Virus record (IMG/VR): IMGVR_UViG_3300045988_159412
Direction: 5' to 3' (one strand)
DNA: 57,634 bases
DNA from: a virus
Made by a program: the position numbers and the translations under genes. The notes under the pieces were generated by a model. It saw only the letters and a program-made list of their open reading frames with translations. It did not search any database and was not told the DNA's origin. This document shows, one piece after another, positions 1 through 57,634 of the stretch (the first letter of the stretch is position 1; every line of letters begins with the position of its first letter).

Positions 1-237
1 ACTGCAACCGCAGGAGAAATTGTGAGAGTTATCTCTACTTCCTCACTATCCCCCGCCGGTGCAATGATTTTTGACCCAGCGCAATATCTTGTCGATAATG
101 GTATCGAGATTGACGGGGAAGGGATTACCTACGAACGCCTGAAAGAGAAGTACAATATTGCTTGTATCGTCTCTAATACTGTGCCGGTCGCGGCCAATAA
201 ATCTCTCACCATTGTCATGGACCTAATCATCCCCTAA
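1..237 (+). CDS. 3' fragment of an ORF that begins upstream of the window (virion module), hypothetical protein
   Basis: Frame 1 is open from nt 1 with no stop until taa at 235-237. The track lists a GTG-started 71-aa piece. Structural-module context. Confidence 0.45.
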   Translation, partial: TATAGEIVRVISTSSLSPAGAMIFDPAQYLVDNGIEIDGEGITYERLKEKYNIACIVSNTVPVAANKSLTIVMDLIIP

Positions 238-249
238 TCTGAAAAAACA

Positions 250-906
250 ATGACTGACCTAGATATTGCTAATTATGCCTTGGGGTTGTTAGGCCAATAC
301 AAAATCCAAAGCTACCCGGAAACGGGGAAAAAGTCAGTAGAAGGTCAGGCATTAGAGGCATATCTTCCATTCGCTATTCAAGATGTCATGATTGATGGCG
401 AATGGAACTTCGCCCGGAAAAGGGTAATCATTGAGCCGTCACCCACAGAGGTGGCGGCCTTTGGTTATCACAATGCTTTCCCGAAGCCTGACGACTTGGT
501 GACAATCATATCCGTGAATGGAGAGCCTTGGAATATTCAGGCGCAGTTTGTGCAGATAGAGGGAGAGTTTATCTTGGCAAACGTTGACCAGTTGAGGCTG
601 GTTTACATTGCCGCCCCCACAGACGGGACAACGCTTCAAGGCATACCTGACCAGCTAAAACCGCTCATAGGAATCAGGTGGGCCTATCTTACGTGTGTAC
701 GCATCACGAACAACATTGAACTCTACAACATGATAGCGGACATGTACCAGAGGGAGTTGCACAGGATGCGGGACAACGACTTCATCAACAACACGGGAGG
801 CAGGTTTAACTACCGCAACAAGCTTATGAGTCAGTCCACTTGGGGCCGCTATCCGTTCGGGACGACAGCACCCTACCAAGGCTCTTATACCTACATTCCC
901 GATTAA
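250..906 (+). CDS. hypothetical protein, 218 aa (virion/structural module)
   Basis: Intact ATG ORF, tightly packed and co-oriented with the large structural genes. No motif recognised. Confidence 0.6.
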   Translation: MTDLDIANYALGLLGQYKIQSYPETGKKSVEGQALEAYLPFAIQDVMIDGEWNFARKRVIIEPSPTEVAAFGYHNAFPKPDDLVTIISVNGEPWNIQAQFVQIEGEFILANVDQLRLVYIAAPTDGTTLQGIPDQLKPLIGIRWAYLTCVRITNNIELYNMIADMYQRELHRMRDNDFINNTGGRFNYRNKLMSQSTWGRYPFGTTAPYQGSYTYIPD

Positions 907-926
907 ACTAAAAACCTTCCAGACAT

Positions 927-3900
927 ATGGCCTCAAATACCCGACAATTTCAAATGCAACTCAACTTCAACGGGGGGCAGGTTTCCGAGAACTTCACCCC
1001 ACGAGTTGACATGCAGAAATACCAGACGAGTTGTTCATTGATGAGGAACTTTATTCCTCGTCAGTTTGGTATGTTAAAGAGGCGACCGGGTTTTGGTGTG
1101 ATTGACGCATTCAAAAATCCTTTTCGGATATTGAAGTTCCCTTGCACCAACAACGAGGAATACATTGTTTGCGTCCACTCCGACAACAAGTATGAGAGCG
1201 GTGGTTGCATTCCCTTCGCAACCATTTACCAATGCGGGTATTTTGGAGACGAGACGAGGAAATGGGAGGTAAATCTTGAGATAGATTCTGTTTTTCAGGC
1301 TGGCATCAACGGATGGACGGCTGATGTTGGCAATGAGAGGCATGGGCGTTTTTGGGACACGGACTTGGAGAAAATCAAGTATGTCTCCCAAAACGACAAA
1401 ATGTGGATAGTGCATCCCGACTTCTTCCCGCTGGAATTAACAAGGACAGCCACACAGGCGAAAATGCCTGATATTTCTATGGCTGACAACCAGTACGTGG
1501 TGGAGTTTGACACGTCTTCGCACTTAAACATTTCCACAAAAAACTCTCTTTGCTTTGGCCTGTATGGTGTTGATAAGCTCAATGCTAAAACGAATCCTTT
1601 CCTTACCTTAAACTTCAAGGACAACAAATCTATCAGCTTTGGTTTTAGCGGTAGTGGAAACAACATGAAGTGGGCCATTACTGACTCATCCGGTGTGGAA
1701 CATCCCTTGGAGGATATAGAGATTGGCTCTGGACAGGTTGTTGCTTTCTCCGACTTCAATCAAAATATTCCTATCAACTATTATTGTTTCCTGACATGGC
1801 GGGGAGGTAAGCTGTATGCCAGCATTGGTTGCAACAATTCTTACGGCACGCTAGGTCTTTATGCTCACTCATCATCCGAGGTTGAGATTGACAGCTCTCT
1901 TGGGGCTGTCACCAGTTTTTGCGTTGGTGGGACTCCGGGAGGATTAAACGCCGCCCAAAGCTATGTTTCGTTCAAGGAGTCGTTTAAAGATGGAACCGGA
2001 TATAGTGGCATTGGTATTAAGGTGAATTATGGTCAGGGAGACGTTCCAACCCAAAGCTTCAACAACAATGACCACAGGAGTTCGTTGATAATGGCTCAAA
2101 TGTTTGGCGACACGTCGAAAGTGTTCGCTGGGAACGATTATAAAATTGAGCATTACAACAATGCCGTTTTCCCGATTAAACAGATATATCAGGGCAACGA
2201 AAAGATTTATCAGGAAAAAGCTGTTATCGGCTTCAAGTTGACAACAATGGACTTCCTGACTTATCCCAAGAGCGACGACTACTATATAAGGGATAAAAGC
2301 CAAGGAACTAATCCCGATAGTCCCATGTTTTGTAGGAACCATGAGACATACCCGGATATTCCCTATTACGTCTATGAGGACACCAGCGTCTCCTTAAACA
2401 CTGTCAACGCTGTTTTTGGGGACAGGTATTTCCTTTCTGATGGTTCCGTCTCGCAATTAACAGGCAACGACGGGACTCGAATTGCCGAGTGGTTAAAAGA
2501 ATATACTCCGGGGGATATTGTTATCGGCTCCTGCCTGATGAACAAAACGGACGGCGTATTGAATGGGAACATATACAACTTCGCTACTGGCGCCAACGTT
2601 GGAATTCCCATTAGCTTCTTTAGGATGGCAAACATCGTATGCCGCTACGTTCGAGGCGACTGGACTCTTAGCACAGACGCAGAAGTGGCGACAACCAAAG
2701 GGGTTCTTGTAAGTTATTTGGAGAATAGCAAGGTCTTTTCAGGCTATCCTTCTGGCGGCGGCTACACAGTCTTCCGAATCAACAATAACTGGTTCTCACA
2801 GCCGAGGAAGCTTAGCATGTCAGGAAGCAATACTCCGGGCGTATTTGTTGGGCTGGTTTATATTGGTGAGAACGGAAACGTGTCCACCGATACTGGTGAT
2901 GCTGGCCAGTCCATTGAGGTTGATAATGGAGGTGGTGTTTATCAGACAGACATTCCCTTTGCCGTGTGGCCTAATCAAAAGAGACTTACTTCAACAACGA
3001 CAGATGCGACGGTATTCCAAAACCTGACCATTATGCCAATGATGTATGCCCCTGTGCTGGATGGCATATTCAAAACATTTAGTTCCTTGTTTGGGAGGGG
3101 CAACTACCAGCTGACTCAAACCAATGTCAGTAGCACCAACTACTATTCGGCCAAGTTTAACGATTTAGTCAAGTGTGCTTTCTCTGTAGAAAAAGGCTAT
3201 CCTTCCTGCATAGCGTTGCGTAATGGGCGGCTGATATTAGCTTCAACTAAGGCCCAGCCCCAAACAATATGGGCTTCCCGTGTTGACAGGTATAATGAGT
3301 TCTCTGTGGACGACATGGCAGATTCCGGCTGGGATGTGACGATAGGCGCGAACCAGAGCCAAAAGATTCAATGGTTGTCTTCCTCTAAGGATTTGATAGT
3401 AGGAACAGACATTGGCGAATGGGTGCTGAACGACAGCGACTCAAGCAATCCTGTACCCATTATTAAAGAGCAATCCAGATGGGGTTCTTCTGTGGCGCAA
3501 GGGGAACTGATGACGGAGAGCCTGTTTTTCATCCCTAGAGACAAAAAGGGTGTTATCCAGTCAATCTACTCTTTCCAGATTGATGGCTACACATCGGAAG
3601 ATGTGACGATTATGGCATCCGATTTGTTTGATTATGGGATTACTTCTCATTCGATTCAGAAAGACCCTGACCCAATCTGGTGGGGTACTACTGGCGACGG
3701 AAGGCTTTTAGGGTTGCTGTATAACCGGGTTCAGGACATCAATGGCTGGTTCCAATGCGATATTCAAGGAGCCTTCATAAATCAGGTATGCTGTTACAAT
3801 AATCCGGTAAAAGGCGAAGAAGGATTGATTGTTTCCGTAAAAGGTAAAGGCGAGAACGATTTCGTAAACGCCAATCAATACTTCCTCTCTTATATGGAGG

Positions 3901-5252
3901 ACAGCAATCCTTGTGTTGACTTCTTCTCCATAGGCCAGAGCATCTGTGTAGCTCGTCTGCCCCGTGGAGAAGAAGTCAACACAGATGCTCTGGCCTATGG
4001 AGGCTTTGTAAACAATTCGTGGAACAACTTCTCCACGGGGCAGACGAGCTACACAGATGCTCTTAACACTCTAATTGTAAATGGCTACTTCAAGGAAAAC
4101 AAAAATAGTTCGCAACTCACAGTTCAGGCCAAAACCCCTACAACTCAAAGCTGGATATCAAGATTTTCTTTTTCCTTCGATGAGTCTGCTATTTTCAACA
4201 ATCCGGTCGCTAGTGGGAGTGATGTTGATATAGAGTCTTTCCTTTTTGAGAACCAGTACGACCCCTCTCAAGAGGTATTAACCAAAGGGCCGTTCTGGAT
4301 GTTTGTTTTCGACGCAGAGACGCAAGAATTCCTTACTTGCTCTATTAACTCGATATTGTTGCCTGACGACAAAAATCAGTTGCCAATCCTTGAGTTCTTT
4401 TTCTTAGGTTTGGTGTTGAAGGCAAACCAGAAGATAAGGTGTTACTTTTCTTCGGAATCGGTTCCCTCATGGGAAGGTGCAGAACAGATTTTGCAGTTAT
4501 CAGTCTTTGACGAGGCCGGCCATGATGTGCAATATGGATATTTCCCATACATGGATGTGAGAGTTAAAGCTACTACATCCAAGATAGAGTGGGACGAAAC
4601 CAAGCCTGTATATCTGGACATCATTTCAGCTAACGGGCAAACAACCACAGGCTATTGCTTTGGCGGCAATGAGGTAAATAATAATTATTCTTATTACCAG
4701 CAAGCGCCGGAGGGTGAAGGCTTGTTCTCCCAGAGCCAAATCGTATTTAATGTTAAGTCTGAAATTGAAAACGATATTGGCCAAGCCGGGAACAGCGGAT
4801 TTATTACTCCCCCGTCCAGCACCTCAGGGACTCTTCCAAACTTTGTTTTTGGGCTTCATATCTTCTCGGAGTTTATTTCAATGCCAATGGGGAATGCCAA
4901 CAATTATGTCATTCCTGCGACCACTACGAAGATTAGCCAACTTAGGTATCAAGTATCACGGGATGAGAGCAACGACGTAACTCCTTCATCTTCATTTCTT
5001 AGTGATGACGGTCTGGCTTATGGTGCGCCAAGGATTCAGGCCACAGTTCAGGCATTGGACTATGATGCCCCGATAGCTATGGAAAAGAGTAATTCCATGT
5101 CGGTATCAACAAACTTGTCTAACGGGAGAGACCATATTGTATTGAGTGGACAAAGCTCTACAGATACAAGACTGTACTTTTCCTTAGATGATGCTAAAAA
5201 GGTGAACGTATTAGCGGCGTATATTCTGTATGATTCCACTATCATTAGCTGA
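927..5252 (+). CDS. large virion protein, 1441 aa, N/S/T/G/Y-rich and probably beta-rich; putative tail, baseplate or receptor-binding protein
   Basis: 4.3-kb uninterrupted ORF. Composition is typical of phage tail or fibre proteins. Lies upstream of tape-measure-like and fibre genes. Confidence 0.7.
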   Translation: MASNTRQFQMQLNFNGGQVSENFTPRVDMQKYQTSCSLMRNFIPRQFGMLKRRPGFGVIDAFKNPFRILKFPCTNNEEYIVCVHSDNKYESGGCIPFATIYQCGYFGDETRKWEVNLEIDSVFQAGINGWTADVGNERHGRFWDTDLEKIKYVSQNDKMWIVHPDFFPLELTRTATQAKMPDISMADNQYVVEFDTSSHLNISTKNSLCFGLYGVDKLNAKTNPFLTLNFKDNKSISFGFSGSGNNMKWAITDSSGVEHPLEDIEIGSGQVVAFSDFNQNIPINYYCFLTWRGGKLYASIGCNNSYGTLGLYAHSSSEVEIDSSLGAVTSFCVGGTPGGLNAAQSYVSFKESFKDGTGYSGIGIKVNYGQGDVPTQSFNNNDHRSSLIMAQMFGDTSKVFAGNDYKIEHYNNAVFPIKQIYQGNEKIYQEKAVIGFKLTTMDFLTYPKSDDYYIRDKSQGTNPDSPMFCRNHETYPDIPYYVYEDTSVSLNTVNAVFGDRYFLSDGSVSQLTGNDGTRIAEWLKEYTPGDIVIGSCLMNKTDGVLNGNIYNFATGANVGIPISFFRMANIVCRYVRGDWTLSTDAEVATTKGVLVSYLENSKVFSGYPSGGGYTVFRINNNWFSQPRKLSMSGSNTPGVFVGLVYIGENGNVSTDTGDAGQSIEVDNGGGVYQTDIPFAVWPNQKRLTSTTTDATVFQNLTIMPMMYAPVLDGIFKTFSSLFGRGNYQLTQTNVSSTNYYSAKFNDLVKCAFSVEKGYPSCIALRNGRLILASTKAQPQTIWASRVDRYNEFSVDDMADSGWDVTIGANQSQKIQWLSSSKDLIVGTDIGEWVLNDSDSSNPVPIIKEQSRWGSSVAQGELMTESLFFIPRDKKGVIQSIYSFQIDGYTSEDVTIMASDLFDYGITSHSIQKDPDPIWWGTTGDGRLLGLLYNRVQDINGWFQCDIQGAFINQVCCYNNPVKGEEGLIVSVKGKGENDFVNANQYFLSYMEDSNPCVDFFSIGQSICVARLPRGEEVNTDALAYGGFVNNSWNNFSTGQTSYTDALNTLIVNGYFKENKNSSQLTVQAKTPTTQSWISRFSFSFDESAIFNNPVASGSDVDIESFLFENQYDPSQEVLTKGPFWMFVFDAETQEFLTCSINSILLPDDKNQLPILEFFFLGLVLKANQKIRCYFSSESVPSWEGAEQILQLSVFDEAGHDVQYGYFPYMDVRVKATTSKIEWDETKPVYLDIISANGQTTTGYCFGGNEVNNNYSYYQQAPEGEGLFSQSQIVFNVKSEIENDIGQAGNSGFITPPSSTSGTLPNFVFGLHIFSEFISMPMGNANNYVIPATTTKISQLRYQVSRDESNDVTPSSSFLSDDGLAYGAPRIQATVQALDYDAPIAMEKSNSMSVSTNLSNGRDHIVLSGQSSTDTRLYFSLDDAKKVNVLAAYILYDSTIIS

Positions 5253-6141
5253 CACAGGCGGCCTAACCGCAGATGGTTTGTTGCCATTGACAGGCTTCCC
5301 CTCATGGATGTGGGGAAGCGACATTCTTAATGGTCAACTCTGGGGTGGAACAGAAATAGCAGAGCCAGCTTACAACGAAATTTGGACAGACCCTACGACT
5401 GGTGTTACGAATGCGCTCCTACCTTCGTTGACTGGATTGGAGCCAATGAACGGCCTGTATGATATTGATTATCAGATAGGTTATCCTGAAATGCCCCAGC
5501 CGCCGACATATAACCCTAACACAAGTTATTTATCATCAACGGCTTCAATAGATACGTCAGCTGGGTTCGAGAAGTCTAGTCCCAACAAAATAGCATGGGA
5601 TGACACGTTTGACCCGTTCGGCTTCAACTCTGCGACGCTTAAAGGATTTGGTAGTGTTCTTTCGGATGTGTCGTCTTCCTTGAGCAAGAAGCGGTCATAT
5701 GCCAACTATGTCGCCAGTTATGAGAATCGGGCACAGGCGTTAAGGAATCAAGCCGAGTCGGCATACAGGATTGCCGGAATAAACATGTCTCGCCTTCGAG
5801 GGAATCAGGCGAAATACCTAGCCCAGCAAAGGGTGTCAGCAGTCAGGACAGGCTTCGCCCCGACTTCCGGTTCCATAGGCGCTGTACAACAGGCGACAAT
5901 GAGCCAGTTCGAGCAACAAATAGCTGATGCTTGGGTGGAAGCGGAACAAAAGAGGCAGAACACAATGTATCAAGCAAGCGTTGCTGATTGGCGGGCAAGC
6001 GAAGCCCGGAAGGCTAGCAAGCGCTCCTCCGGTGGATTCCTTGGCTCGCTACTTGGCTCTGGTGTGGGAGCTTATTTTGGAGGCCCCACTGGAATGGCGA
6101 TAGGTTCTAAGATAGGTTCATCCATAGGAGGGTTATTTTAA
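5230..6141 (+). CDS. hypothetical virion protein, 303 aa, C-terminal glycine-zipper-like segment (GSLLGSGVGAYFGGPTGMAIGSKIGSSIGG)
   Basis: ATG at 5230 overlaps the stop of the 1441-aa gene by 23 nt (translational coupling). Hydrophobic Gly-rich C-terminus. Confidence 0.6.
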   Translation: MIPLSLADTGGLTADGLLPLTGFPSWMWGSDILNGQLWGGTEIAEPAYNEIWTDPTTGVTNALLPSLTGLEPMNGLYDIDYQIGYPEMPQPPTYNPNTSYLSSTASIDTSAGFEKSSPNKIAWDDTFDPFGFNSATLKGFGSVLSDVSSSLSKKRSYANYVASYENRAQALRNQAESAYRIAGINMSRLRGNQAKYLAQQRVSAVRTGFAPTSGSIGAVQQATMSQFEQQIADAWVEAEQKRQNTMYQASVADWRASEARKASKRSSGGFLGSLLGSGVGAYFGGPTGMAIGSKIGSSIGGLF

Positions 6142-6143
6142 TC

Positions 6144-8096
6144 ATGGTGACCAACGATACTAGAGACATAAGAATGGGTGTCAGTAGTGCGAACAAGGAG
6201 GGGTTGTTGCCTTCTCCTTCAAACCGTTATTTGCGCTCCACTTATGATGCGGCCAGATATGTTCCTATTGGAAATGAGTTCGACAAAGAGAGCCGAGTAA
6301 AGGAGCTTGGCGACCTTGGAGAAGGACTCACAATGTGGTCGAAGGCGCAAGCGGAAGTCGAGACAACGAACGACAGTATTCAGTCACGGCGCATGCAGGC
6401 AGAGTACATGGAAGCTTCCACACAGGTTTTCAATCAGCTTCAAAAAGACCCCAGCACGATGAACAATCCTGCGGTTTGGCTGGACGCCTATACGGAGGAG
6501 ATGACATCAAGGGCGGCAGAGATTAACAACAAGTATGCCAAATCGTTTTATGTTGGGCGCAATCAGATGTTGTCCAATGAAAGGCTCAACCTGTTGCTGA
6601 AAGAGGAGAAGAACAAGGTGGGCCTGATGGCGGCAGACAGAATATCAAAGATGGCCGCAGACGAAACTAATGCGGCGTTCAAGATTGCTGTGGCCAACAG
6701 GGATTTCGGGTTGGCTAGGGAGATAAATAAAAGCCCCTACCTAACACCTGCGGAAAAGATGTTGAATGAGAATGGAGTTGTTCAAGCCCAGACACAGGAC
6801 ATCATCCAGCAGGAAACATTGAGGAACCCTTGGGGTGTGCTGGAAGAGGTGAATAGGGATGGCGCTGTACAGCGTCGTGAATTGACCTACGAGCAACAGC
6901 AGTACGCATTGAACCAAGCGCAGGGCCGGATAAGCATGATTCAAAAGCAATCGTATGACTCTCTCGTACAGAAGTTTTTGTTCAACCCGGAAGAGTTTGA
7001 GATGGATGTCGCCAAAAAGCTATTGGACACCAACCAGCTGACGACCCAGCAATATGTCAACCTCCTCAACATGAAGAAGACCATGAGCGCCAAGATTGAG
7101 CCGACTCCAATGCAGTTTGCGGCCATGTCTAATTGGGCGGTCAAGCTTTCAGAGGATTATCACAAAGAGTCGCCAGAGGGACAGGCCAACATCCTCTCCC
7201 AAGCTGAACGGCTTCTTGAGCGGATGAATTTCAGCACCAGCGACAAGAACTCATTGCTCAAGCTTGTAACACAAAAGATTTCCCCGGAAACGTTCAATCA
7301 GGCTGACAAGTTGGTAGAGAAGTTTTGGGATAACGGCCAACTACCTCTGACCAAGACAGCGGATTACACCGGAACTCAAGGAGGAACTACTCCGATTTAT
7401 TTGACGGAGGGAGAGTTTAATACGCAGTTCAAAGAGAGGAAGAACCAGTTTTTCTTAGACAAAAGCAGGACATACCTAGACCCGAAAACGGCAAAAGACA
7501 GGTATGCTGTGATGGAGTATGTGCCGGACTCGAACAATCTGTTCCTGCAAGAAAAGATAAAAAGCGAAGTTCGTTCCGTCCTTTCTGATAAGATTGCTGA
7601 ATATAGGGCAGAACACAATGGGAAATCTCCTACCGGACAAGAGCTTTATGAGCTTGTTTTTTTCGCACAAGAAGAGGCGTTCTCCCGGAATAATATCAGC
7701 AGTATTGACCCATTATCTTCTGCCTCTGTTTATCCTTCTGGACAGCAAGACAGAGACGAAAGAAAGGCGACATTTATTCCGAACAACGTTAGAGTGTCGG
7801 CTATATCGAATAAAGCTTCTATAGATATTCCGACTAATGGTGCTTTTATTGTTTGGGCCGGAAGTAACTCTTTCATTACAAACGAGAAAGACTACTTGAG
7901 CATATATAAACGGGCCGGGGCGCCCCCTCAAGGATTTATCGTAGCAGATGAATCTTTCCTCCAAGCTCCACACAAAGATTTAATGGATGTGCAAGCTATG
8001 ATTTCGGCCAAAGCGATAGCGGCGAAAGCTGGATTAGATGCACAAGGAGAGCAGGGAATTTATTGTGCATTGCTTTCCTATTGGAATAATTTATAA
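6144..8096 (+). CDS. hypothetical virion protein, 650 aa
   Basis: Long ORF in the structural operon. Start is 3 nt after the previous stop. No motif recognised. Confidence 0.65.
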   Translation: MVTNDTRDIRMGVSSANKEGLLPSPSNRYLRSTYDAARYVPIGNEFDKESRVKELGDLGEGLTMWSKAQAEVETTNDSIQSRRMQAEYMEASTQVFNQLQKDPSTMNNPAVWLDAYTEEMTSRAAEINNKYAKSFYVGRNQMLSNERLNLLLKEEKNKVGLMAADRISKMAADETNAAFKIAVANRDFGLAREINKSPYLTPAEKMLNENGVVQAQTQDIIQQETLRNPWGVLEEVNRDGAVQRRELTYEQQQYALNQAQGRISMIQKQSYDSLVQKFLFNPEEFEMDVAKKLLDTNQLTTQQYVNLLNMKKTMSAKIEPTPMQFAAMSNWAVKLSEDYHKESPEGQANILSQAERLLERMNFSTSDKNSLLKLVTQKISPETFNQADKLVEKFWDNGQLPLTKTADYTGTQGGTTPIYLTEGEFNTQFKERKNQFFLDKSRTYLDPKTAKDRYAVMEYVPDSNNLFLQEKIKSEVRSVLSDKIAEYRAEHNGKSPTGQELYELVFFAQEEAFSRNNISSIDPLSSASVYPSGQQDRDERKATFIPNNVRVSAISNKASIDIPTNGAFIVWAGSNSFITNEKDYLSIYKRAGAPPQGFIVADESFLQAPHKDLMDVQAMISAKAIAAKAGLDAQGEQGIYCALLSYWNNL

Positions 8097-8103
8097 ACAA
8101 ATC

Positions 8104-11100
8104 ATGGAAGAGCTTTCAGAACAACCCGAAGATTCTATCCTGTTGGATGAAATAAAGAAAATGAATTCGGGCCTCGCTTCTAATAAGGAGCAACCTGAAA
8201 TAACAGAAGAGGATTTAGAAGCAAATCCTCAAGCTTACTCTTCTGAACAAATTGAAGGGGTTTTAAGAAACAAGAGAAGTATTCGCACAAAGCTTGACGA
8301 TTATTTAAGGATGTCGTCTAGCTTGCTTCCTACTACTCCACGAGAAGCCTTAGATGCCGTAGGGACATTGCGTGAGGAACTGCAAGCAAATGGTATAGAC
8401 CCGGAGTATGAGAGGTATCGTGAGAAGATAAAAAGAAACGAAGATATAGTTTATTCGGTTACTAGGTATATCAATCCAACAACAGGCTTGTTTGGGGATG
8501 TTCCTGCACAAGATGTAACAAACAATAAGCTGGAAAAAATACTTAGTGCTGAGCAAATTAGGGATTTCAATAATGCCCCGCAGTTTATGCGAGACAAATA
8601 TGTTTTCAATCGCATTGTTGAAAACTTTTTCCCGGAAGGGGAGATGGATAAAGGGTATGCACTAGAACTCCTGAAAAAGCATTATCAAACCGACTCAATG
8701 CACGGAGTTGTCAGCAAATACGCTCAAGAGCTTCAAAGGAACAAGGATGAGGAGACAGCATACAATGAAGCCTCTACCAGATTTTTCGATTCCTTTATAG
8801 AAACAGGAGGCGATTACCAGAAAGCAATCGACAGCTTGGAAGGCAATCTAAACCTGTATGCGGAAAACATTTTCAACCAAGAACCTGCGCTTAAATACAT
8901 TTACCAGCGTGCGTATAACTCCGTCTCATGGATTAAAGATGAATACATAGAAAGCGGAGAGCTGGATTGGGACAAGATGGCAGACAGGTTGTTGAAGCTT
9001 GGGGAAGGAGAGACGTTCTCTCTAGCCATTCAGATGCTTCCCTACATGTTGCCCAAAGACGACAGGACTTGGCTAACCCAAGCCATAGACGACACCGCCT
9101 CTGATGTCTCCCGCTTTGCTAGGCTCATGGTTGACGGAGGAGGTGATAGCGCCCAAGCAGAACGCCTTGCGTTGGCTATCCAGCAGGAATATCGTCAGGG
9201 CCGAGACATGCCTACTTCGTGGCTAGGAATAGCGGCTAAGGTAGCAACAGACCAAGTTCCCAAGATAACGGCAGTAACAGGAAGTACTCTTTTAGCTAGT
9301 GGTGGAGGCCCTGTATCTATGGCCGCCACAGGTATGGCTGTCGGCTCAATGGTGTATGGTTCAACGGTAGGTCTTGAGGCATATAGGACGAATTCTTCTA
9401 GGGCAGGAGCATTGACATATGGTGTTACTGTTGGGGCCTTGGAAGGTCTCCTTGAAAACGTAACTCTTGGCGTTGGTGCTTTGGCCTCCAAAGGTATTAA
9501 GGTGGCAGAGGCAGGTAGGAAAATGGCCTCTGTTGCCGGAAGAGTTCCCGCTACCGTAAGAGGTGCGGCGGCTGGTGCTTTGTCTGAATATACCCAAGAA
9601 GTCATTGCTGACCCAATTTATGTTGGATTGGAGAATGTAATGCGCTCTGCGGGGTTTGAGCTTACCCAGCAAAACACCCTTAAAAACTGGTGGGAAACAT
9701 TGGACTTCACATCCCCTGAACTATTGGGGGCTACAGCCATTCTTGGCGGCTCCATTGGTGCTGTTGGGGGCTATCAAGCTAACCACCTCATCAACCGAGT
9801 AGGAAGAAGCGCTTCGGCTCTTCAAGCTTATGGTGTACCCGAATCGGAAGCTGTGGCTATTGCCGAAATGCCAGACGGCAAGGAGCGCACAAACAGGCTT
9901 ATATCGGCCCTTCGCAATAACCGGGTAAGCCCCGACGTGCAAATAACAAACCAGCAAGCGGGGATATTCCTGAACTTTTTAGCTAAGAATGCAGAGAGGT
10001 TTAAGGATGTTGAGCTGATGCCGGAGATATCCGACAACGGGGACGGAACCTTTAATATTGTTGAGAGAGACCCGGTAAGTGGAGCTGAAAAAGTAACCAC
10101 AGTAACAGACGAAATCGCAGGGACGTTCATGTCTCAAGCGTTGCAGTCAAATCCGGGATTTATCAGGGCATTAAATATTTTCGCCCAAGAAGAGATAGAG
10201 TCAGGGGTGGGCAAGGAGACGAAGATAAAGAGCTATACTCCTGACGAACTCCGAGCAAAAATCCAATCCACAGAAGACAACAATGCAACTATAGCACGAC
10301 TTAGGGCTTTGGCTGTAATTAACCAAGACCCGGAATTGTTGCAGAGTTTTCGTGATGGGAAAGTAAGTATTGAAGATGTAGCAAATGAGCTGGAAATTGT
10401 ATCTGCATATAGAGATGGCACGATTGCTGTTGCGAGGGGTGAAGCGAATCCTCTCAATATTCTGGAAGAAATAATTCACGCCCGTGCAATATCCGATTTG
10501 GAGAGCGGCGTTATTTCTCGAAGCGTCATTGAAACACAGGTAAGGAATTACTTGGAGTTCTTGGGACGTAGTGCGGAAGAGATAGGGGATTTGAGCAATG
10601 ACGTTGTGTTGCAGGAACATTTGGCGAATATGGGGAAGGCTTTGGCAACAACGCCGGAACTGTTTTCCGCAATGCCCGGCAATGTTCAAACAATCCTTGA
10701 GTGGCAGAAGGACGCTATAGCGGAAGTTGGGAATGTCTTTGCGGAAGGCGCTCTGATAAAAGAGGCCATTGAGCAGGGCATTGTCTCTCCCGATTTTGTC
10801 AAGTGGTCTAAATCTTTGGCGACTATGGCCGAACGTCGTGACGGTCAGGATATGGCAGAGCTTGTCAATGGTGCGACCGGAGAAAGCATTTTGCCAATGG
10901 GCCAGAGCCTTCCTTCCGTGAGGAGGCGTGGAACCATTGATGTAACTCCTTCTGTAAGAACCATTAATGAAGCCATATCAAACATAGTCAATGGCGCATC
11001 GGAAAGGTCTATAGGCCAGCTCCACAAATTGCAGAGGAGCATGATAAAGCTTTCGGAAAGGTTTTCTCAAGGGAAGCTGACCGAACGAGGACAACAGAAA

Positions 11101-14100
11101 GCGTTACTGAATTCTGTTCTCTCTATCGCTAATGCAATGGCTTCCGGTAGCCGGAAGTTTATCTCCAACCAGCTTGCCGAAAGGCTTGCGAATCCCAAGA
11201 GCAACGAAGCGTTTAATGCGGACATGAAGACTGCATTGGATGCCACAGTAGCGGCCTTGAACGAAAGAGCGGAGGCGGCGAGCCGGAAGCAGTTGGAGCG
11301 CATTATTCAGGACGAGATAAACAGGAGGGTTGAGCAAGCGGACGCTAAAGCCAAGAAGGATTTCAACAGGGAAATGAAATTCCTCCGGGGTTTAATCTCC
11401 AAGGAAATAAGGAAAGACATCAAGGAGGAAAGAGCGGAGGCGGCGGCAGAGAAGAAGCTTGCCAGTAAAAGCATACAGAGCTTGCGAAGGCTTGCCGAGA
11501 ATGCTTTTAAGGACACCAAGGGGCGCTCTCGTTCTTTGGACGCACAAGCCAGAGAGGAGACTATGGATGCCCTTGAGGTTATGGCTATGTCTCCTTCCGA
11601 AGTTGCAACCCAGCTTGAAGTCTTGGATAGCACCATAGATGAGCTTCAAAACCAGCCTGCCACAGAAGAACTTGCTCTGGAACTGGAAAATCTGGAAAAC
11701 CAAAAGAATCTCCTTGAGGTGTTTGGTAGTGCGTTGTATCGGGAGAAGATGCCTAACGGAAGGTATAAGTATGCTCTCAATGCACAGCAACTTGCGGAAG
11801 CAGTTAAGACATTGAAGGAGCTACAGCGTGAAGGGCGACTCCGCAGGAAAAAGGTTAATGAACGTATTGAGCGCTTCTATAATGATTTTAACGCTAAAAT
11901 CAATGAGCGAGTAGGAGGAGAGAAGAATCGTGATGCCCTTAGAAAAGCCGTAATGGAAAGGGACCAACGGGGAACGGGCTTTTTAGATAGAATCTTCACG
12001 CAATTCATGAGCCTTCAACAACTCCTCGAAGTGATGTCTTCCATGAAATCCTTTAAGGACATAGGGACATTCTTGCAGAACAACGTCCAATTCGCAGAGC
12101 AACAGCGAGGGGTAGAAAAAGAAAAGGCTACGTCCAATGCGATTCGCATCATGCGTGGAATGATGGAGATTGCAGGGCAGAACTCTCCAAGGTATTTTGA
12201 TGAGCTTTCTACAAAAACTATTCCCTTTATGGGGCATGAGCTAACCAAGTATGGCCTTGTAAAAGTCTATCAGACATTGAGAGAGAAGGATGGCTTGGCT
12301 GTATTGAGAGAAAACCTTGGAGACAAGGGGATGGATTTCGGCAACTATCGTAAGTACCAACAGGAGTTGGAGGGCTTAAACAAGAGCCTTGATGATGGCG
12401 CCATTACTTCCGAAGAGTTTGAGTCCAATCTGGAAGTCATTGAAGAAGAATACCTTGCGAGGAAGGAAAAAGATATTGCCAAGCTATTGGAATTGCTTGG
12501 GCCGGATGGGCTTTACCTTGCTGACGAGTTACAGAACCTGTATCGGGAAAAGGGCGAGAAGCTACGGGCGTTCATGGCAGAGAACTATGGCCAGACGGTT
12601 ATCCTTGATGACTACTATACGCCCCGCAATATTGCCGCCTATAATACAATGCAAGAAGGGGATATGGATGCTTACAGTAAGGGACACGTCACAAGGACGG
12701 GCTTGCCCTCTTACGCAAAGCACCGGAACACTCCCTCTTCGGCGGCGCTCTCTCTGGAAATAAACCCTCTTGGGGAATATCTTCGTTATAGCTCTATCAT
12801 GGAGGGGTGGATGACAGCTTCGGAACTGGTCAACTTCAACAACCGGGTATGGGCTAATCCCACAACGAATGCACAGTTGCAGAAATTATTAGGCCCAGCC
12901 AATTTCGAGGCGGCAAACAAAGCCCTGTATTACTTCATCAACGAGGGGCGTGTGTATGCCCAAAAGAGCATGTTGGCAGAGGTAATGGGGAAAGTGTTCC
13001 AAGTATTGGCTAAGACAAGGATTGCTTTCTCCTTGGCTTCTCTGGTGCGCTCTGGGGCGGCTTTGTTCAACCCTATCGTTGGTAGCAACTTCTCCATGAT
13101 GGAAATTATCAAAGGCGTGGCAGAGGTGACAAGCGGGAACTATAAAGGTTTTACCCTTGAAGAGCTTCGTGACTTGGAGGCAATGAAGGAACGTAAGTAC
13201 CGTGGATGGGAAGACCGTGTGCTTGCCGATAAGGCATTAAGCATTCCCCTAAAAAAACAAGCGCAATGGGGATATTGGCAGGAAGCGGGCATGAGCGGCC
13301 TTATGGCTTTTGACTGGTGGAGCATATCTTTTGTGAATCAGCTGACCTCCCACATGCTTGCTAATCGCGGTTTGTCGCATGAACAGATAAGATGGGAGCT
13401 TAACAAAAACATCTACCAGACGGCACAGCCTTTATCTACCTCCGCTAAGGCTATCCACTTGATAGGTGGAAGCTCATTTGAGCAAGCCCAGTTCCTTTTC
13501 TTGTCCGACGTGATGAACAAGTTCGGCCTAGTGATGATGCAAGGCAAAAAGGATGTTCCTTTCTGGGAGGCTTTTCAGGGAGCCTTTCGTGTTTATACTA
13601 TTGCCGCTCTTGCTAATGGTCTCTTCAACGGCTTGGCTACAGGTTTGTTTGGCGATAAAGACAAAGAGGACGACTTCATGAGCAACTTCTTATTGACTTC
13701 GGTATTGAGTCCGATTGTTTCTGTCCCTATGTTCGGCGGGTTTGCAGAGTGGTGCGCTTCCCTTATTAGCGGTGGTAAGCAATTCAGTCTGGGACGAGCC
13801 GATATGGCTGATTTATCCAAATCAATTCAAGGCTTAGTCAGAAGTATTGTGAAGACGTATGAGACTGTATCGGAAAAATGGGACAAGGAAGGTGCTTTGA
13901 CTACCAATGATTACATTGATATGGTTTCCTATGTAGGCAAAAATATTGGGAGTGTCGCATCGGCTACCACAATATTTGGTACTTCTGGGCAGAGTATGAC
14001 CAAAGCTCTAGAGATGGTAGGTGCATTATCAAATGCCCTTTCACAAGCTAAGACGACCACACAGAAATTCCTTCCAGAGTCAGTAAATCCCCTCTATACC

Positions 14101-14256
14101 GAAAAAGAAGCTATGAAGGAGAGGGCTAGGCAGATAAGAAGGGAGAAGAAGAAGGCCAAGCAGGAAAACGGCGAAAGGTCAGCAACCTACAGAAAACTTT
14201 CACGGGAATTAAGGCAAATAAACAAACAGTTGAAGATAAGGGGCTGGGAAGACTAG
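8104..14256 (+). CDS. tape-measure-like protein, ~2050 aa
   Basis: Gly/Ala-rich hydrophobic stretches in the N- and C-terminal thirds (e.g. VTGSTLLASGGGPVSMAATGMAVGSMVYG; LANGLFNGLATGLFG). Central charged coiled-coil (AEAASRKQLERIIQDEINRRVEQADAKAKKD...). This is the classic tape-measure architecture. First in-frame ATG (MEELSEQ) is at 8104; the track start at 8038 overlaps the upstream gene. Confidence 0.65.
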   Translation: MEELSEQPEDSILLDEIKKMNSGLASNKEQPEITEEDLEANPQAYSSEQIEGVLRNKRSIRTKLDDYLRMSSSLLPTTPREALDAVGTLREELQANGIDPEYERYREKIKRNEDIVYSVTRYINPTTGLFGDVPAQDVTNNKLEKILSAEQIRDFNNAPQFMRDKYVFNRIVENFFPEGEMDKGYALELLKKHYQTDSMHGVVSKYAQELQRNKDEETAYNEASTRFFDSFIETGGDYQKAIDSLEGNLNLYAENIFNQEPALKYIYQRAYNSVSWIKDEYIESGELDWDKMADRLLKLGEGETFSLAIQMLPYMLPKDDRTWLTQAIDDTASDVSRFARLMVDGGGDSAQAERLALAIQQEYRQGRDMPTSWLGIAAKVATDQVPKITAVTGSTLLASGGGPVSMAATGMAVGSMVYGSTVGLEAYRTNSSRAGALTYGVTVGALEGLLENVTLGVGALASKGIKVAEAGRKMASVAGRVPATVRGAAAGALSEYTQEVIADPIYVGLENVMRSAGFELTQQNTLKNWWETLDFTSPELLGATAILGGSIGAVGGYQANHLINRVGRSASALQAYGVPESEAVAIAEMPDGKERTNRLISALRNNRVSPDVQITNQQAGIFLNFLAKNAERFKDVELMPEISDNGDGTFNIVERDPVSGAEKVTTVTDEIAGTFMSQALQSNPGFIRALNIFAQEEIESGVGKETKIKSYTPDELRAKIQSTEDNNATIARLRALAVINQDPELLQSFRDGKVSIEDVANELEIVSAYRDGTIAVARGEANPLNILEEIIHARAISDLESGVISRSVIETQVRNYLEFLGRSAEEIGDLSNDVVLQEHLANMGKALATTPELFSAMPGNVQTILEWQKDAIAEVGNVFAEGALIKEAIEQGIVSPDFVKWSKSLATMAERRDGQDMAELVNGATGESILPMGQSLPSVRRRGTIDVTPSVRTINEAISNIVNGASERSIGQLHKLQRSMIKLSERFSQGKLTERGQQKALLNSVLSIANAMASGSRKFISNQLAERLANPKSNEAFNADMKTALDATVAALNERAEAASRKQLERIIQDEINRRVEQADAKAKKDFNREMKFLRGLISKEIRKDIKEERAEAAAEKKLASKSIQSLRRLAENAFKDTKGRSRSLDAQAREETMDALEVMAMSPSEVATQLEVLDSTIDELQNQPATEELALELENLENQKNLLEVFGSALYREKMPNGRYKYALNAQQLAEAVKTLKELQREGRLRRKKVNERIERFYNDFNAKINERVGGEKNRDALRKAVMERDQRGTGFLDRIFTQFMSLQQLLEVMSSMKSFKDIGTFLQNNVQFAEQQRGVEKEKATSNAIRIMRGMMEIAGQNSPRYFDELSTKTIPFMGHELTKYGLVKVYQTLREKDGLAVLRENLGDKGMDFGNYRKYQQELEGLNKSLDDGAITSEEFESNLEVIEEEYLARKEKDIAKLLELLGPDGLYLADELQNLYREKGEKLRAFMAENYGQTVILDDYYTPRNIAAYNTMQEGDMDAYSKGHVTRTGLPSYAKHRNTPSSAALSLEINPLGEYLRYSSIMEGWMTASELVNFNNRVWANPTTNAQLQKLLGPANFEAANKALYYFINEGRVYAQKSMLAEVMGKVFQVLAKTRIAFSLASLVRSGAALFNPIVGSNFSMMEIIKGVAEVTSGNYKGFTLEELRDLEAMKERKYRGWEDRVLADKALSIPLKKQAQWGYWQEAGMSGLMAFDWWSISFVNQLTSHMLANRGLSHEQIRWELNKNIYQTAQPLSTSAKAIHLIGGSSFEQAQFLFLSDVMNKFGLVMMQGKKDVPFWEAFQGAFRVYTIAALANGLFNGLATGLFGDKDKEDDFMSNFLLTSVLSPIVSVPMFGGFAEWCASLISGGKQFSLGRADMADLSKSIQGLVRSIVKTYETVSEKWDKEGALTTNDYIDMVSYVGKNIGSVASATTIFGTSGQSMTKALEMVGALSNALSQAKTTTQKFLPESVNPLYTEKEAMKERARQIRREKKKAKQENGERSATYRKLSRELRQINKQLKIRGWED

Positions 14257-14285
14257 TCCCCCCCTCAACCTAACCAACACTAACA

Positions 14286-15110
14286 ATGGCAATAAAAAAA
14301 AAGGTAAAAGCAGTAGAGCCGGAAGTGGTTTCCTCTGTTGAGCCAGAGGTGGCGGCAGTCCCCATGACAATGGCGGCGGCCACACCTCGCTCCAACGGAC
14401 AATCGTCCAACGGCTTTGCTAAGGTAGAACAGGGGAAATCCTATGTTCTATCCGTCAATGCCCCTTCTGGTTCGGCAGAAGTCGAACTATTGGCGGCAGA
14501 TAGTGATACACAAAGCGAACCTGACATGTTTTCTCTTCTTTACACGAAAGTGGAGAACTCTATGCAGATTCCCTTTGTGGCTGTTTCTTCTTGGGTATAT
14601 GTGCAAGCAGGTAATAGTAGCATTAACTGGCTTGTAACACCGGCAAATTTTAGTCTCGCCGTTCCCGGTGTGTCGTCCGGTGGCGGCGAAAGCTTTGACC
14701 CCGCTTCTGACTACAACATTTCAGGGAAATGGAAGTTTACACAGCCCCTTAAAATTGCAGAAGCAACGGTAGCGACAGAGGCTGTAACTCTAGGGTATGT
14801 TAAGGCACGATTCCAGCAGACTGTTGACATAATTTCAACACAAACCATAGGCGGCACTAAGACCTTCTCTGCGTCTCCTGTAGTTCCAATTCCTACTATG
14901 CAAAACCAAGCGGCTAACAAAAACTACGTTGACGCTAATATTATCCAAGTGAAGAGCCTGTTGGAAAAAACTATGGGCTATGTGGAAATGACGGAAGCGG
15001 AGTATAACGCTCTTAGCGAAAAAGCAAACAACTGTATTTACTATCTAACCGACAAATCTATGTGGGCTATCGGCGACAAGCAGCTTGTCACGTCTGATAT
15101 GCCTGCGTGA
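14286..15110 (+). CDS. tail fibre protein, 274 aa
   Basis: C-terminal motif IGGTKTFSASPVVPIPTMQNQAANKNYVDANI matches the conserved G-x-KTF...P...P...A-x-NK-x-YVD signature of phage tail fibres. Directly downstream of the tape-measure-like gene. Confidence 0.65.
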   Translation: MAIKKKVKAVEPEVVSSVEPEVAAVPMTMAAATPRSNGQSSNGFAKVEQGKSYVLSVNAPSGSAEVELLAADSDTQSEPDMFSLLYTKVENSMQIPFVAVSSWVYVQAGNSSINWLVTPANFSLAVPGVSSGGGESFDPASDYNISGKWKFTQPLKIAEATVATEAVTLGYVKARFQQTVDIISTQTIGGTKTFSASPVVPIPTMQNQAANKNYVDANIIQVKSLLEKTMGYVEMTEAEYNALSEKANNCIYYLTDKSMWAIGDKQLVTSDMPA

Positions 15111-15150
15111 TAGTCCCCTCTCCCGATTTCGGGGGGGGCATAACTCTTTT
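15111..15150 (+). terminator. putative rho-independent terminator after the tail-fibre gene
   Basis: GC-rich hairpin cccctctcccga-ttt-cgggggggg followed by ataactctttt, immediately after the stop at 15110. Confidence 0.4.
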
Positions 15151-15163
15151 ATAATCAATAGCA

Positions 15164-15527
15164 ATGTACTTATATAATACAACAATCCAATCAGCTGAAT
15201 TAGCCACAGGCAGTGCTGTTGCTGTGACACTCCCAGAAGATGCTCCAGAGGGCATGTATGAAATACGCTTCATTAGTGCAACACCAACAGGAACTTGCCT
15301 CATTAAAAGAGGATTGGATTGTCACGGAAGCTGTGCTTTTCCCGAGCGTTGATGACCCGTCAGAAACTGTAGAGATAGAAGTTTCTGCTAGACACACCTC
15401 AATAAAACTTTCTGACCCTCGCGTACCTATAAAATTTTTCACGTCATGCGAGATTCCTGCTCTAAAAAAGAAAGACAAGGATTTGATGGAGTTCTTAAAA
15501 TGGATAGCAGAAACAAGGTTAGAATAA
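15164..15527 (+). pseudogene. two overlapping small ORFs (62 aa at 15164..15352; 95 aa at 15240..15527) in different frames; possibly one frameshifted small gene
   Basis: Both translations look protein-like. The frames overlap around an A4 run (cattaaaagagg) where a 1-nt shift would fuse them into about 120 aa. Confidence 0.25.
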
Positions 15528-15793
15528 ATACTCGACATGAACAACACTTCATCCTAGTATACCAACAGTTGCTATTCCGGTAGCCACTGTATATAGGTGT
15601 TTCAATGTCATAAAGACAGGGCCTCCGTTAAAAGCGAGGGTCCTGTTTTTTATGCGTGTTCGAGCAACTTGTAAGCTTTCCTTACAAGTTCGATGAACTG
15701 TAAAGAAAAACTTTACAGTTGACCAAGGGAACAGGATTTGGTCTAATGCTCTTGGAAGAATTCATTTCTTCTTTCGTTGTGCATATTCGAGCG

Positions 15794-15847
15794 GAGCAGC
15801 TTCGGGGTTTTTTCTCATGTTTTACCCGAAGCTGCTCTTCTTTTTTG
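15794..15847 (+). terminator. strong hairpin (13-bp perfect stem gagcagcttcggg/cccgaagctgctc, 18-nt loop) followed by ttcttttttg; terminator-like or structured RNA element
   Basis: Stem arms at 15794-15806 and 15825-15837 are exact reverse complements. T-run at 15838-15847. Lies inside the 1.5-kb non-coding region. Confidence 0.5.
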
Positions 15848-17538: not shown

Positions 17539-17662
17539 CAAAACCCTGCCATATGAGTTTATGAGCTAGGGTGAAAATCAATCCAAATCAAACAACTAAT
17601 CATATAAAAGTAGGAAGTGTGGTATATACCGTAGGTCAACCTTCCCGGCTCCCTCGTAAGAC

Positions 17663-17710
17663 CTCCGCACTACGGGCGTAAAATGCGTTAGTAGTGCGGA
17701 GTTTTTGTTT
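17663..17710 (+). terminator. rho-independent terminator or leader hairpin (11-bp stem ctccgcactac/gtagtgcggag plus tttttgttt)
   Basis: Perfect stem at 17663-17673 and 17691-17701 followed by a T-run. Ends only 14 nt before the next ATG at 17724. Confidence 0.55.
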
Positions 17711-56708: not shown

Positions 56709-56728
56709 ATGTCTGGAAGGTTTTTAGT

Positions 56729-57385
56729 TTAATCGGGAATGTAGGTATAAGAGCCTTGGTAGGGTGCTGTCGTCCCGAACGGATAGCGGCCCCAAGTGGA
56801 CTGACTCATAAGCTTGTTGCGGTAGTTAAACCTGCCTCCCGTGTTGTTGATGAAGTCGTTGTCCCGCATCCTGTGCAACTCCCTCTGGTACATGTCCGCT
56901 ATCATGTTGTAGAGTTCAATGTTGTTCGTGATGCGTACACACGTAAGATAGGCCCACCTGATTCCTATGAGCGGTTTTAGCTGGTCAGGTATGCCTTGAA
57001 GCGTTGTCCCGTCTGTGGGGGCGGCAATGTAAACCAGCCTCAACTGGTCAACGTTTGCCAAGATAAACTCTCCCTCTATCTGCACAAACTGCGCCTGAAT
57101 ATTCCAAGGCTCTCCATTCACGGATATGATTGTCACCAAGTCGTCAGGCTTCGGGAAAGCATTGTGATAACCAAAGGCCGCCACCTCTGTGGGTGACGGC
57201 TCAATGATTACCCTTTTCCGGGCGAAGTTCCATTCGCCATCAATCATGACATCTTGAATAGCGAATGGAAGATATGCCTCTAATGCCTGACCTTCTACTG
57301 ACTTTTTCCCCGTTTCCGGGTAGCTTTGGATTTTGTATTGGCCTAACAACCCCAAGGCATAATTAGCAATATCTAGGTCAGTCAT
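56729..57385 (-). CDS. hypothetical protein, 218 aa (mirror of 250..906)
   Basis: Exact reverse-complement copy. Confidence 0.6.
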   Translation of the reverse strand: MTDLDIANYALGLLGQYKIQSYPETGKKSVEGQALEAYLPFAIQDVMIDGEWNFARKRVIIEPSPTEVAAFGYHNAFPKPDDLVTIISVNGEPWNIQAQFVQIEGEFILANVDQLRLVYIAAPTDGTTLQGIPDQLKPLIGIRWAYLTCVRITNNIELYNMIADMYQRELHRMRDNDFINNTGGRFNYRNKLMSQSTWGRYPFGTTAPYQGSYTYIPD

Positions 57386-57397
57386 TGTTTTTTCAGA

Positions 57398-57634
57398 TTA
57401 GGGGATGATTAGGTCCATGACAATGGTGAGAGATTTATTGGCCGCGACCGGCACAGTATTAGAGACGATACAAGCAATATTGTACTTCTCTTTCAGGCGT
57501 TCGTAGGTAATCCCTTCCCCGTCAATCTCGATACCATTATCGACAAGATATTGCGCTGGGTCAAAAATCATTGCACCGGCGGGGGATAGTGAGGAAGTAG
57601 AGATAACTCTCACAATTTCTCCTGCGGTTGCAGT
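57398..57634 (-). CDS. 3' fragment of an ORF whose start lies beyond the window edge (mirror of 1..237)
   Basis: Exact reverse-complement copy. Open to the window edge. Confidence 0.45.
   Translation of the reverse strand, partial: TATAGEIVRVISTSSLSPAGAMIFDPAQYLVDNGIEIDGEGITYERLKEKYNIACIVSNTVPVAANKSLTIVMDLIIP

Follow-up and report, generated by a model that had tools for sequence, protein, structure and literature searches.

The 57,634-nt viral stretch analysed here (IMG/VR record IMGVR_UViG_3300045988_159412, hereafter the window) is a single exact palindrome, and this palindrome is best read as a fold-back artefact of assembly or library preparation, not as a genome structure. We infer the artefact rather than observe it, and put its probability at roughly 0.88. 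This reading is preferred because contigs from other samples continue naturally beyond the axis of symmetry, a conserved gene is interrupted at the axis, the dyad found there is not conserved, no protelomerase was found, and an assembly graph built at k=21 branches at this point. What the contig really contains is 28.8 kb of sequence, ~70% of a single genome, in two copies. It derives from a T7-like podovirus of the gut whose genome is ~40 kb long and assembles as a circle.

Mirror symmetry and the content of the arms

Comparison of the window with its own reverse complement gives 0 mismatches across 57,634 bases, and the base counts are equal in pairs (A=T=16,527; C=G=12,290). The axis lies at 28817/28818, within ...CATTTG/CAAATG... 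(TTGCAA), and there is no spacer. The perfect palindrome reported in the preliminary description is thus borne out at base level, and a palindrome of this length cannot have originated by chance. The features on which the analysis turns are as follows.

1..28817, - strand: left arm, matching the right arm exactly as its reverse complement and mirroring real phage sequence
28818..57634, + strand: right arm, 28.8 kb of the natural ~40-kb genome in natural gene order
28807..28828, no strand: natural 22-bp perfect palindrome, TAACTCATTTG followed by CAAATGAGTTA, its centre being the axis of the whole window
28818..29092, + strand: conserved 139-aa first early gene, truncated to its C-terminal ~91 codons (mirror 28543-28817, - strand)
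1..237, + strand: outer arm end, a C-terminal fragment of a hypervariable 178-180-aa gene upstream of tubA (mirror 57398-57634)

The left arm holds no information beyond that of the right arm. Read in the natural direction, the right arm runs from early genes through a recombination module to convergent late structural genes, and ends in the gene upstream of tubA. In the mirrored orientation of the left arm, the genes for tail tubular proteins A and B, the internal virion proteins and the tail fibre lie on the + strand, while the - strand carries the RuvC-like, PD-(D/E)XK exonuclease, RecT-like and AT-rich early genes.

Both edges of the window cut the same gene, as had been noted before: the open reading frame at 22-237 encodes the C-terminal portion of the 178-180-aa product whose gene lies upstream of tail tubular protein A. 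UMFZ01007394.1, an independent NCBI contig of this strain, matches window positions 1-15252 at 100% identity, and its final base is window base 1. The assembly to which it belongs, GCA_900526845.1, probably derives from the same sample as the window. Just upstream of that base, the sequence differs strongly among strains. Because UMFZ01007394.1 stops at the identical base, the window edges look like contig ends, probably produced by a break in the assembly graph, and not like biological termini. The symmetry had been expected to continue past the edges; given where this second contig ends, it probably does not.

The axis in other assemblies and in its natural gene

The gene index that was searched (ENA, JGI, NCBI and Logan) does not contain the window's own contig. 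Twenty site-spanning contigs, drawn from other samples and built by several assemblers (MEGAHIT, SPAdes, Logan), were checked for their flanks. All 20 run through the axis into different DNA and none folds back. To the left of the palindrome, every one of them reads ...gagtttaaggatat, and the mirror of the right flank occurs in none. Ten contigs compared with the window (L001-L010) are 97.0-99.97% identical to it, with homology beginning at window position 28804. Three further contigs (L040, L051 and L057) carry the gene at the axis intact and at full length.

None of the 45 collection blocks that contain the axis-proximal 99-aa protein holds a contig longer than 50 kb. Exact 30-40-mers adjoining the axis had no match in IMG/VR, where this variant of the early gene is represented by one contig only. 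The axis-truncated 71-aa open reading frame, a marker for other fold-back contigs, is not on record.

The axis had been placed in a promoter-like spacer. It falls instead, in the natural genome, inside a conserved coding sequence of 125-139 aa (L002 9628-10047), in the Ala codon of ...I-N-S-F-A-N-E-L-L.... The N-terminal 48 codons of this gene are missing from the window, where the mirror arm stands in their place, and the natural left-flank sequence is likewise absent. Consistent with this, a tblastn search of the 139-aa protein against the window recovers residues 46-139 only, residues 46-48 matching through the palindrome. Homologues occur in unrelated phages, namely Parabacteroides phages PF672P1/P2 and Eggerthella phage EL753P1 (E 3e-16 to 4e-23), and these span the axis residue. 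Frameshifts at the 3' end of the 139-aa gene differ between strains and confounded a count of synonymous and non-synonymous changes, and the evidence from homologues was used in its place.

The 22-bp palindrome and the possible origins of the mirror

Of the whole symmetry, the real genome contains the 22-bp palindrome alone. It is the longest spacer-free palindrome in the monomer and the only one of at least 22 bp, the next being 14 bp long; its length was reached in 4 of 200 shuffles. The dyad is perfect in 4 of the 21 tabulated alleles, or 5 of 22 when L010 is included. In the other 17, pairing holds at 8-10 of the 11 positions, and the mismatches include central bases. Since the dyad is perfect in a minority of alleles and incompletely paired in the rest, its symmetry is not under selection.

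In a toy de Bruijn graph, the perfect allele branches from R' to R, its own reverse strand, at k=21 only. There is no reverse-strand branch at k of 23 or more, nor with an imperfect allele. Four contigs with the perfect allele (L002, L003, L006 and L044) were nevertheless assembled correctly, and the palindrome alone is therefore insufficient for fold-back. What it does is permit the strand switch in this strain.

These observations suggest how a fold-back contig may have been built. The path would start at the strain-variation break upstream of tubA and follow the genome to the 22-bp palindrome in the first early gene. There it would switch to the reverse strand and return to the same break, giving two identical 28,817-bp arms. 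In the likeliest mechanism, the perfect palindrome would act as a self-reverse-complementary (k+1)-mer at k=21, so that the graph could legally join R' to R. The value k=21 is the default first k of both metaSPAdes and MEGAHIT. The true left branch enters a strain-variable region and might be pruned as weak or short, and the mirrored walk would then persist into the final contigs. The final k of an assembler is well above 22, and a pure graph artefact therefore requires that a mis-join made at small k be carried forward.

The same explanation could be reached by another route, through real chimeric reads from multiple displacement amplification (MDA) or library preparation. A single strand ending at the palindrome, or displaced across it, could snap back on its 11-nt self-complement and be extended, and the resulting R'-to-R reads would be followed by the assembler. 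Of the assembler-graph and chimeric-read routes, the former may be the likelier. Either way, the window shows the marks of such an artefact: exact self-complementarity, a non-mirrored continuation elsewhere, a turning point at a natural palindrome, and arms that probably end at a graph break.

One point that stands against an artefact is that a real inverted dimer inside the cell would yield an identical contig. Such a head-to-head dimer, or a defective rearranged genome, might be seeded at the 22-bp palindrome, either through a break or stalled fork followed by snap-back priming from the 3' end, or through SbcCD-type processing of a hairpin followed by fold-back replication. Palindrome-seeded inverted duplication is an established process in vivo, in bacteria and eukaryotes, which lends the idea some support. 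So do the coincidence of the axis with the midpoint of the longest natural palindrome and the phage's own RecT-like, exonuclease and RuvC-like recombination proteins. An inverted rearrangement in tubB of the same strain, which resembles a genuine template-switch mutation, points the same way. However, the packaged genome is ~40 kb, whereas this molecule would be 57.6 kb or longer and so could not be the virion genome. It would also destroy a conserved early gene, an intermediate of this kind is expected to be rare relative to normal genomes in a stool metagenome, and none was found in the other samples examined. On balance, this origin seems very improbable.

A more specific version holds that the mirrored junction is real and that two point changes completed the 22-bp palindrome, triggering snap-back replication and giant inverted dimers of the early arm in infected cells. 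We consider this very improbable. If true, a highly prevalent gut phage would offer a natural instance, tied to one allele, of inverted duplication seeded by a palindrome, and the nearby in-frame template switch in tubB would record the same error-prone replication a second time.

A further possibility is a hairpin-telomere replicon of the N15, PY54 and phiKO2 kind: a protelomerase would resolve a linear plasmid-prophage, and the axis would mark a telomere of that replicon, either as its covalently closed tip or as the junction formed on replication. A hairpin end that had been opened and sequenced would give exactly such a mirror contig. Moreover, the virion form of a telomere phage also reads through an intact palindromic site, as the contigs from other samples do (as known from N15-type phages; PMC10612081). 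The gene content speaks against this reading. A telomere phage encodes a protelomerase of the TelN/TelK/ResT type, as a rule directly beside the tel site. Profile searches with Pfam and PHROGs, covering the main window open reading frames of at least ~95 aa and, from L002, most genes of the missing ~11 kb, found no telomere resolvase or other tyrosine recombinase, in agreement with the earlier observation that no protelomerase is recognisable in the window. In the same genes of the ~40-kb genome, no families for temperate linear-plasmid functions (repA, partition genes or other plasmid-replication genes, an immunity region) were detected. The structural module is that of a T7-like podovirus. 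A search of 185,579 species-representative genomes (GTDB) for a prophage, a host or a relative found none. A relative carries a classical integrase instead.

The site itself is no closer to a telomere. The telRL of telomere phages is a large palindromic sequence (PMC10612081), and a resolution site of this type would be large, conserved and non-coding, and would lie between the arms. Here the site spans just 22 bp of protein-coding sequence, and most alleles carry mismatches in it, some of them at the central bases. A hairpin-telomere replicon was rejected on these grounds of gene content and site properties, and is extremely unlikely. The earlier preference for an artefact over a hairpin-telomere dimer is thus supported, both by the absence of a protelomerase from the genes searched and by the non-mirrored course of all 20 flank-checked contigs beyond the axis.

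Comparable contigs, viral catalogues and the phage behind the arm

Whole-contig palindromes have been met before, in SPAdes assemblies of isolates (PMC9455707) and in single-cell assemblies (10.1101/2023.06.06.543983), and in both cases were judged to be assembly errors and removed by the authors. The window resembles these contigs in that the whole contig is one exact mirror, with every gene duplicated as an identical reverse complement. In those studies the turning point was not identified, whereas here it is a natural 22-bp palindrome that forms a self-reverse-complementary edge at k=21. Unlike in those cases, the true continuation is given here by contigs of other samples.

Chimeras formed in the laboratory offer a second parallel. 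Inverted joins make up more than 85% of MDA chimeras, with priming on 2-21 nt of complementary sequence (Lasken & Stockwell 2007, PMC1855051); whole-genome amplification produces artificial palindromes (Pacasus, PMC6218980); and library-preparation chimeras arise at inverted repeats and palindromes (PMC10908179). The window shares with such fold-back chimeras an inverted join, an artificial palindrome and a short self-complementary seed, which at 11 nt is within the reported range. MDA chimeras, however, usually have an intervening deletion and are individually rare, whereas the join in the window is spacer-free and coincides exactly with the dyad.

The likeness to telomere phages (N15, PY54, phiKO2, VP882) consists of a palindromic site between two genome arms and of the mirror contig that an opened hairpin would give. 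Unlike them, the phage behind the window has no protelomerase gene or adjacent telN that could be found, its site is short and intragenic with a dyad that is not conserved, and, being a podovirus, it shows a T7-like structural module; plasmid-maintenance genes were not detected in it.

For viral catalogues, the relevant likeness is to complete genomes called from inverted terminal repeats (ITRs). CheckV makes this call where the two ends of a contig are reverse complements over at least 20 bp (PMC8116208), as the ends of the window are. Unlike in a genuine case, the 'ITR' here spans the entire contig; instead of a complete linear genome bounded by terminal repeats, the sequence contains two copies of ~70% of one genome. 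Taken at face value, the contig would count as a phage genome of 57.6 kb that bears 'inverted terminal repeats' and satisfies the closed-genome rule (PMC8116208). Such a reading would double every gene, inflate the genome size and suggest an exotic hairpin replicon, when the actual contig is ~70% of a ~40-kb genome with one gene truncated. A checkable rule follows: any spacer-free perfect palindrome of at least k_min+1 bases is a possible turn-back point for de Bruijn assembly. Viral catalogues should screen out exact whole-contig self-complementarity.

The arm comes from an uncultivated podovirus that is very common in the human gut and has a structural module like that of T7. In other assemblies, the same phage appears as contigs of ~39.6-41 kb, whose gene order matches that of the right arm. 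Neither half of the arm has a nucleotide match among 50,697 phage records. The replication and recombination genes detected encode a DnaC-like loader, a RecT-like protein, a PD-(D/E)XK exonuclease and a RuvC-like resolvase. A 526-aa protein is the large terminase and a 541-aa protein the portal. A possible pyrophosphohydrolase domain (PRA-PH) scores below Pfam's cut-off, and a 439-aa protein is weakly amidoligase-like (PF12224, E 0.003; phrog_2443), with no PDB sequence match at E<=1.

Three large contigs of this phage, of 81.5, 82 and 111.8 kb, had been suspected of being further palindromes. With tubA at 55.9 kb in forward orientation and RuvC at 34.5 kb reversed, the 82-kb scaffold fits a head-to-tail dimer, not a mirror. 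The inverted rearrangement in tubB, the second in this strain, is small; it has 5-nt microhomologies at its junctions and keeps the reading frame.

Natural sequence at the axis

Comparison of the window with its own reverse complement gave 0 mismatches over 57,634 bases, with equal counts of A and T and of C and G. The base-level palindrome of the preliminary description is therefore correct, and its axis lies between 28817 and 28818 (...CATTTG|CAAATG...). Symmetry on this scale cannot have arisen by chance. The unique sequence amounts to no more than 28,817 bp, approximately 70% of the genome.

Alignment to ten contigs from other samples showed that right-arm homology begins at window 28804 and ends there. 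To the left of this position, all ten carry ...gacgggaaagagtttaaggatat, which differs from the mirror of the right flank. This natural left flank is absent from the window; it is present in all of ten further contigs recovered from the metagenome collection using a 31-mer of the right flank as a probe, none of which is a fold-back. The symmetry of the real genome is limited to a 22-bp palindrome, TAACTCATTTG|CAAATGAGTTA (window 28807-28828), the centre of which is the window axis.

The palindrome is not in a promoter-like spacer, as had been proposed, but within a conserved 125-139-aa ORF (9628-10047 in contig L002), at ...I-N-S-F-A-N-E-L-L.... This ORF is retained in all strains examined (79-100% protein identity). 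Its homologues in Parabacteroides phages PF672P1/P2, Eggerthella phage EL753P1, and uncultured faecal phages (36-44% identity) span the axis residue. The window holds only the C-terminal part of the ORF. The mirror is most likely an artefact, and the natural phage genome lacks such a feature. The earlier preference for an artefact is supported, with three corrections concerning the axis gene, the natural palindrome, and the window edges.

Pairing of the 22-bp palindrome in 21 natural alleles
11/11 positions (perfect): 4 alleles
10/11 positions: 2 alleles
9/11 positions: 13 alleles
8/11 positions: 2 alleles

The contig L010 adds a fifth perfect allele (5/22). Most alleles are imperfect, and the codon changes that distinguish them are ordinary ones (TTC/TTT, ATT/AAT/AAA). 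The dyad is therefore not conserved; two point changes lead from the common to the perfect form. The palindrome is the longest without a spacer in the reconstructed monomer (the runner-up has 14 bp), and one of such length occurred in 4 of 200 composition-preserving shuffles. It is unusual, yet compatible with chance plus drift.

The underlying phage

The underlying phage is an uncultivated podovirus of about 40 kb with a T7-like structural module, and is very common in the human gut, as indicated by exact-protein look-ups, in which 5,017 collection blocks list an identical tail tubular protein A (tubA) and 4,560 list the RuvC-like protein. PHROGs and Pfam scans placed the structural module on the + strand of the left arm, and the recombination and replication module plus early genes on the - strand, directed away from the axis.

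Features of the left arm
250-906, +, tail tubular protein A (PHROGs/Pfam)
927-5252, +, tail tubular protein B, tubB (PHROGs/Pfam)
5230-6141, +, internal-virion-protein-like gene (PHROGs/Pfam)
6144-8096 and 8038-14256, +, two large ORFs without assignment, in the position of internal virion proteins
14286-15110, +, tail fibre (PHROGs/Pfam)
19233-19799, -, RuvC-like
20939-22084, -, PD-(D/E)XK/DUF2800 exonuclease
22149-23069, -, RecT-like (phrog_3657)
23487-24119, +, DnaC/IstB-like loader, within the recombination/replication module

The small early genes form an AT-rich block (GC about 31%, against 41-52% in structural genes). Two neighbouring early genes, 24217-24903 and 25406-26725 (- strand), have weak matches to class-II glutamine amidotransferase (PF13230, E 0.002) and amidoligase (PF12224, E 0.003; phrog_2443, E 1.9e-5), both Pfam matches being under the cut-off. 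Such gene pairs are known from phages and mobile elements.

Long contigs of the phage are mostly about 39.6-41 kb and contain about 11 kb absent from the window. This stretch holds small genes together with those for an Amidase_3 lysin, the large terminase (526 aa), a portal of the T7 type (PF12236), a scaffold/protease-like protein, and the capsid. The early and the late genes point away from each other on either side of a variable region of about 1.5 kb. Contig end positions differ from sample to sample, as expected of a circularly assembling genome. Some assemblies are over-length (about 2x or 2.75x the genome): L020/L052 (ERZ28635227 scaffold_137, 81,972 bp), L014 (81,523 bp), and L011 (111,781 bp). 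Scaffold_137 was considered as a possible mirror, but its tubA and RuvC positions and orientations fit a head-to-tail dimer instead.

Neither an RNA polymerase nor a DNA polymerase was detected in the phage, and 50,697 phage records included no near cultured phage at the nucleotide level. One relative, situated at one end of a 142-kb contig (L058; ENA ERZ825716 NODE_58_length_142256), has a 356-aa Phage_integrase (1838-2908; PF00589, E 4.5e-11) where the AT-rich early genes would otherwise lie. This is probably a temperate lineage member in its integrated form, from which the host could be identified.

Telomere phages combine a large palindromic telRL with an adjoining protelomerase gene, and their temperate genome is kept as a linear plasmid (PMC10612081). 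In contrast, the site here is 22 bp long, falls within a coding region and is imperfect in most alleles, and resolution at it would cut a conserved gene in two. No protelomerase or tyrosine recombinase was found among the searched genes of the roughly 40-kb genome, where, apart from the terminase and the portal, only a 439-aa weakly amidoligase-like protein without a PDB relative has a suitable size. No plasmid-maintenance genes were detected, GTDB species-representative bacterial genomes yielded no relative of the phage, and the L058 relative has a classical integrase. As far as sequence alone can do so, these points refute a hairpin-telomere replicon resolved by protelomerase.

Origin of the mirror

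The probable artefact route runs through the assembly graph. Each of the two 21-mers that make up the palindrome is the reverse complement of the other. In a toy two-strand de Bruijn graph made from the natural monomer, the perfect allele at k=21 lets the first 21-mer be entered from either the true left flank or the mirrored right flank, and lets its successor lead either to the right flank or to the mirrored left flank. No branch appears at k>=23, nor does one appear for the common imperfect allele. Both metaSPAdes and MEGAHIT start at k=21 by default and pass small-k contigs on. The true left branch enters a strain-variable region within a few hundred bases; if it were pruned, the sole surviving walk would run from the mirrored right arm into the right arm.

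Alternatively, chimeric reads could have arisen through an 11-nt snap-back at the palindrome, which would fit published descriptions. In MDA, inverted joins primed by 2-21 nt of complementarity account for more than 85% of chimeras (PMC1855051), artificial palindromes result from whole-genome amplification (PMC6218980), and inverted repeats and palindromes also give rise to chimeras in ordinary library preparation (PMC10908179). Assembly errors in the form of whole-contig palindromes have been reported from plain isolate libraries assembled with SPAdes (PMC9455707) as well as from single-cell assemblies (10.1101/2023.06.06.543983). The perfect allele was assembled correctly in four samples (L002, L003, L006, L044), so the palindrome is necessary, not sufficient. 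The MEGAHIT contig L010 (ENA ERZ919637 k127_16175, 39,583 bp), with the perfect allele, begins exactly 21 nt left of the palindrome, and two more places are similar; this may be coincidence, or it may again reflect interference of the perfect allele with assembly.

The outer ends are also consistent with fold-back during assembly. Window base 1 lies at the start of a hypervariable gene segment, and is the final base of UMFZ01007394.1, an independent NCBI deposit of the same strain (25,227 bp, identical over 15,252 bases). Symmetry had been expected to continue outwards; the edges are instead probably contig ends. They coincide with the variable/conserved boundary of a 178-180-aa gene that is flanked by the capsid gene and tubA; the N-terminal and central parts of its product vary strongly among strains, the C-terminus less so (window 1-237; loci L011-L024 around locus position 9752). 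The far end of UMFZ01007394.1, assuming collinearity with the window, falls in a 12/24-nt tandem repeat (25218-25323; mirror 32312-32417) within a 135-aa ORF (24917-25324). The repeat encodes KEQKKEQM units, differs in length among strains (products of 111-127 aa) and is an assembly breakpoint, where many Logan contigs, and apparently the NCBI contig, stop.

An inverted dimer truly formed inside cells, with the palindrome as its seed, would yield an identical contig. However, it would measure at least 57.6 kb, more than the packaged genome of about 40 kb, and would destroy a conserved gene, and no other examined sample shows one; this origin is very improbable.

A smaller inversion occurs in tubB, where a 58-nt segment (3926-3983; mirror 53652-53709) is inverted with forward copies on both sides. 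Relative to the natural order X-Y-Z, the sequence here reads X-rc(XYZ)-Z; its junctions show microhomologies of 5 nt (CTCCA, ACACA), and the net increase in length is 33 nt. The reading frame is uninterrupted (1441 aa; other strains have 1402-1454 aa, most commonly 1430 aa), and UMFZ01007394.1 has the same rearrangement. It has the appearance of a true double template-switch mutation, although it could be a chimera.

An ITR of at least 20 bp is a criterion for calling closed genomes (PMC8116208), by which this contig would qualify despite holding about 70% of a genome. The palindromic window, otherwise of little value, is a clean worked example for the screening of viral catalogues.
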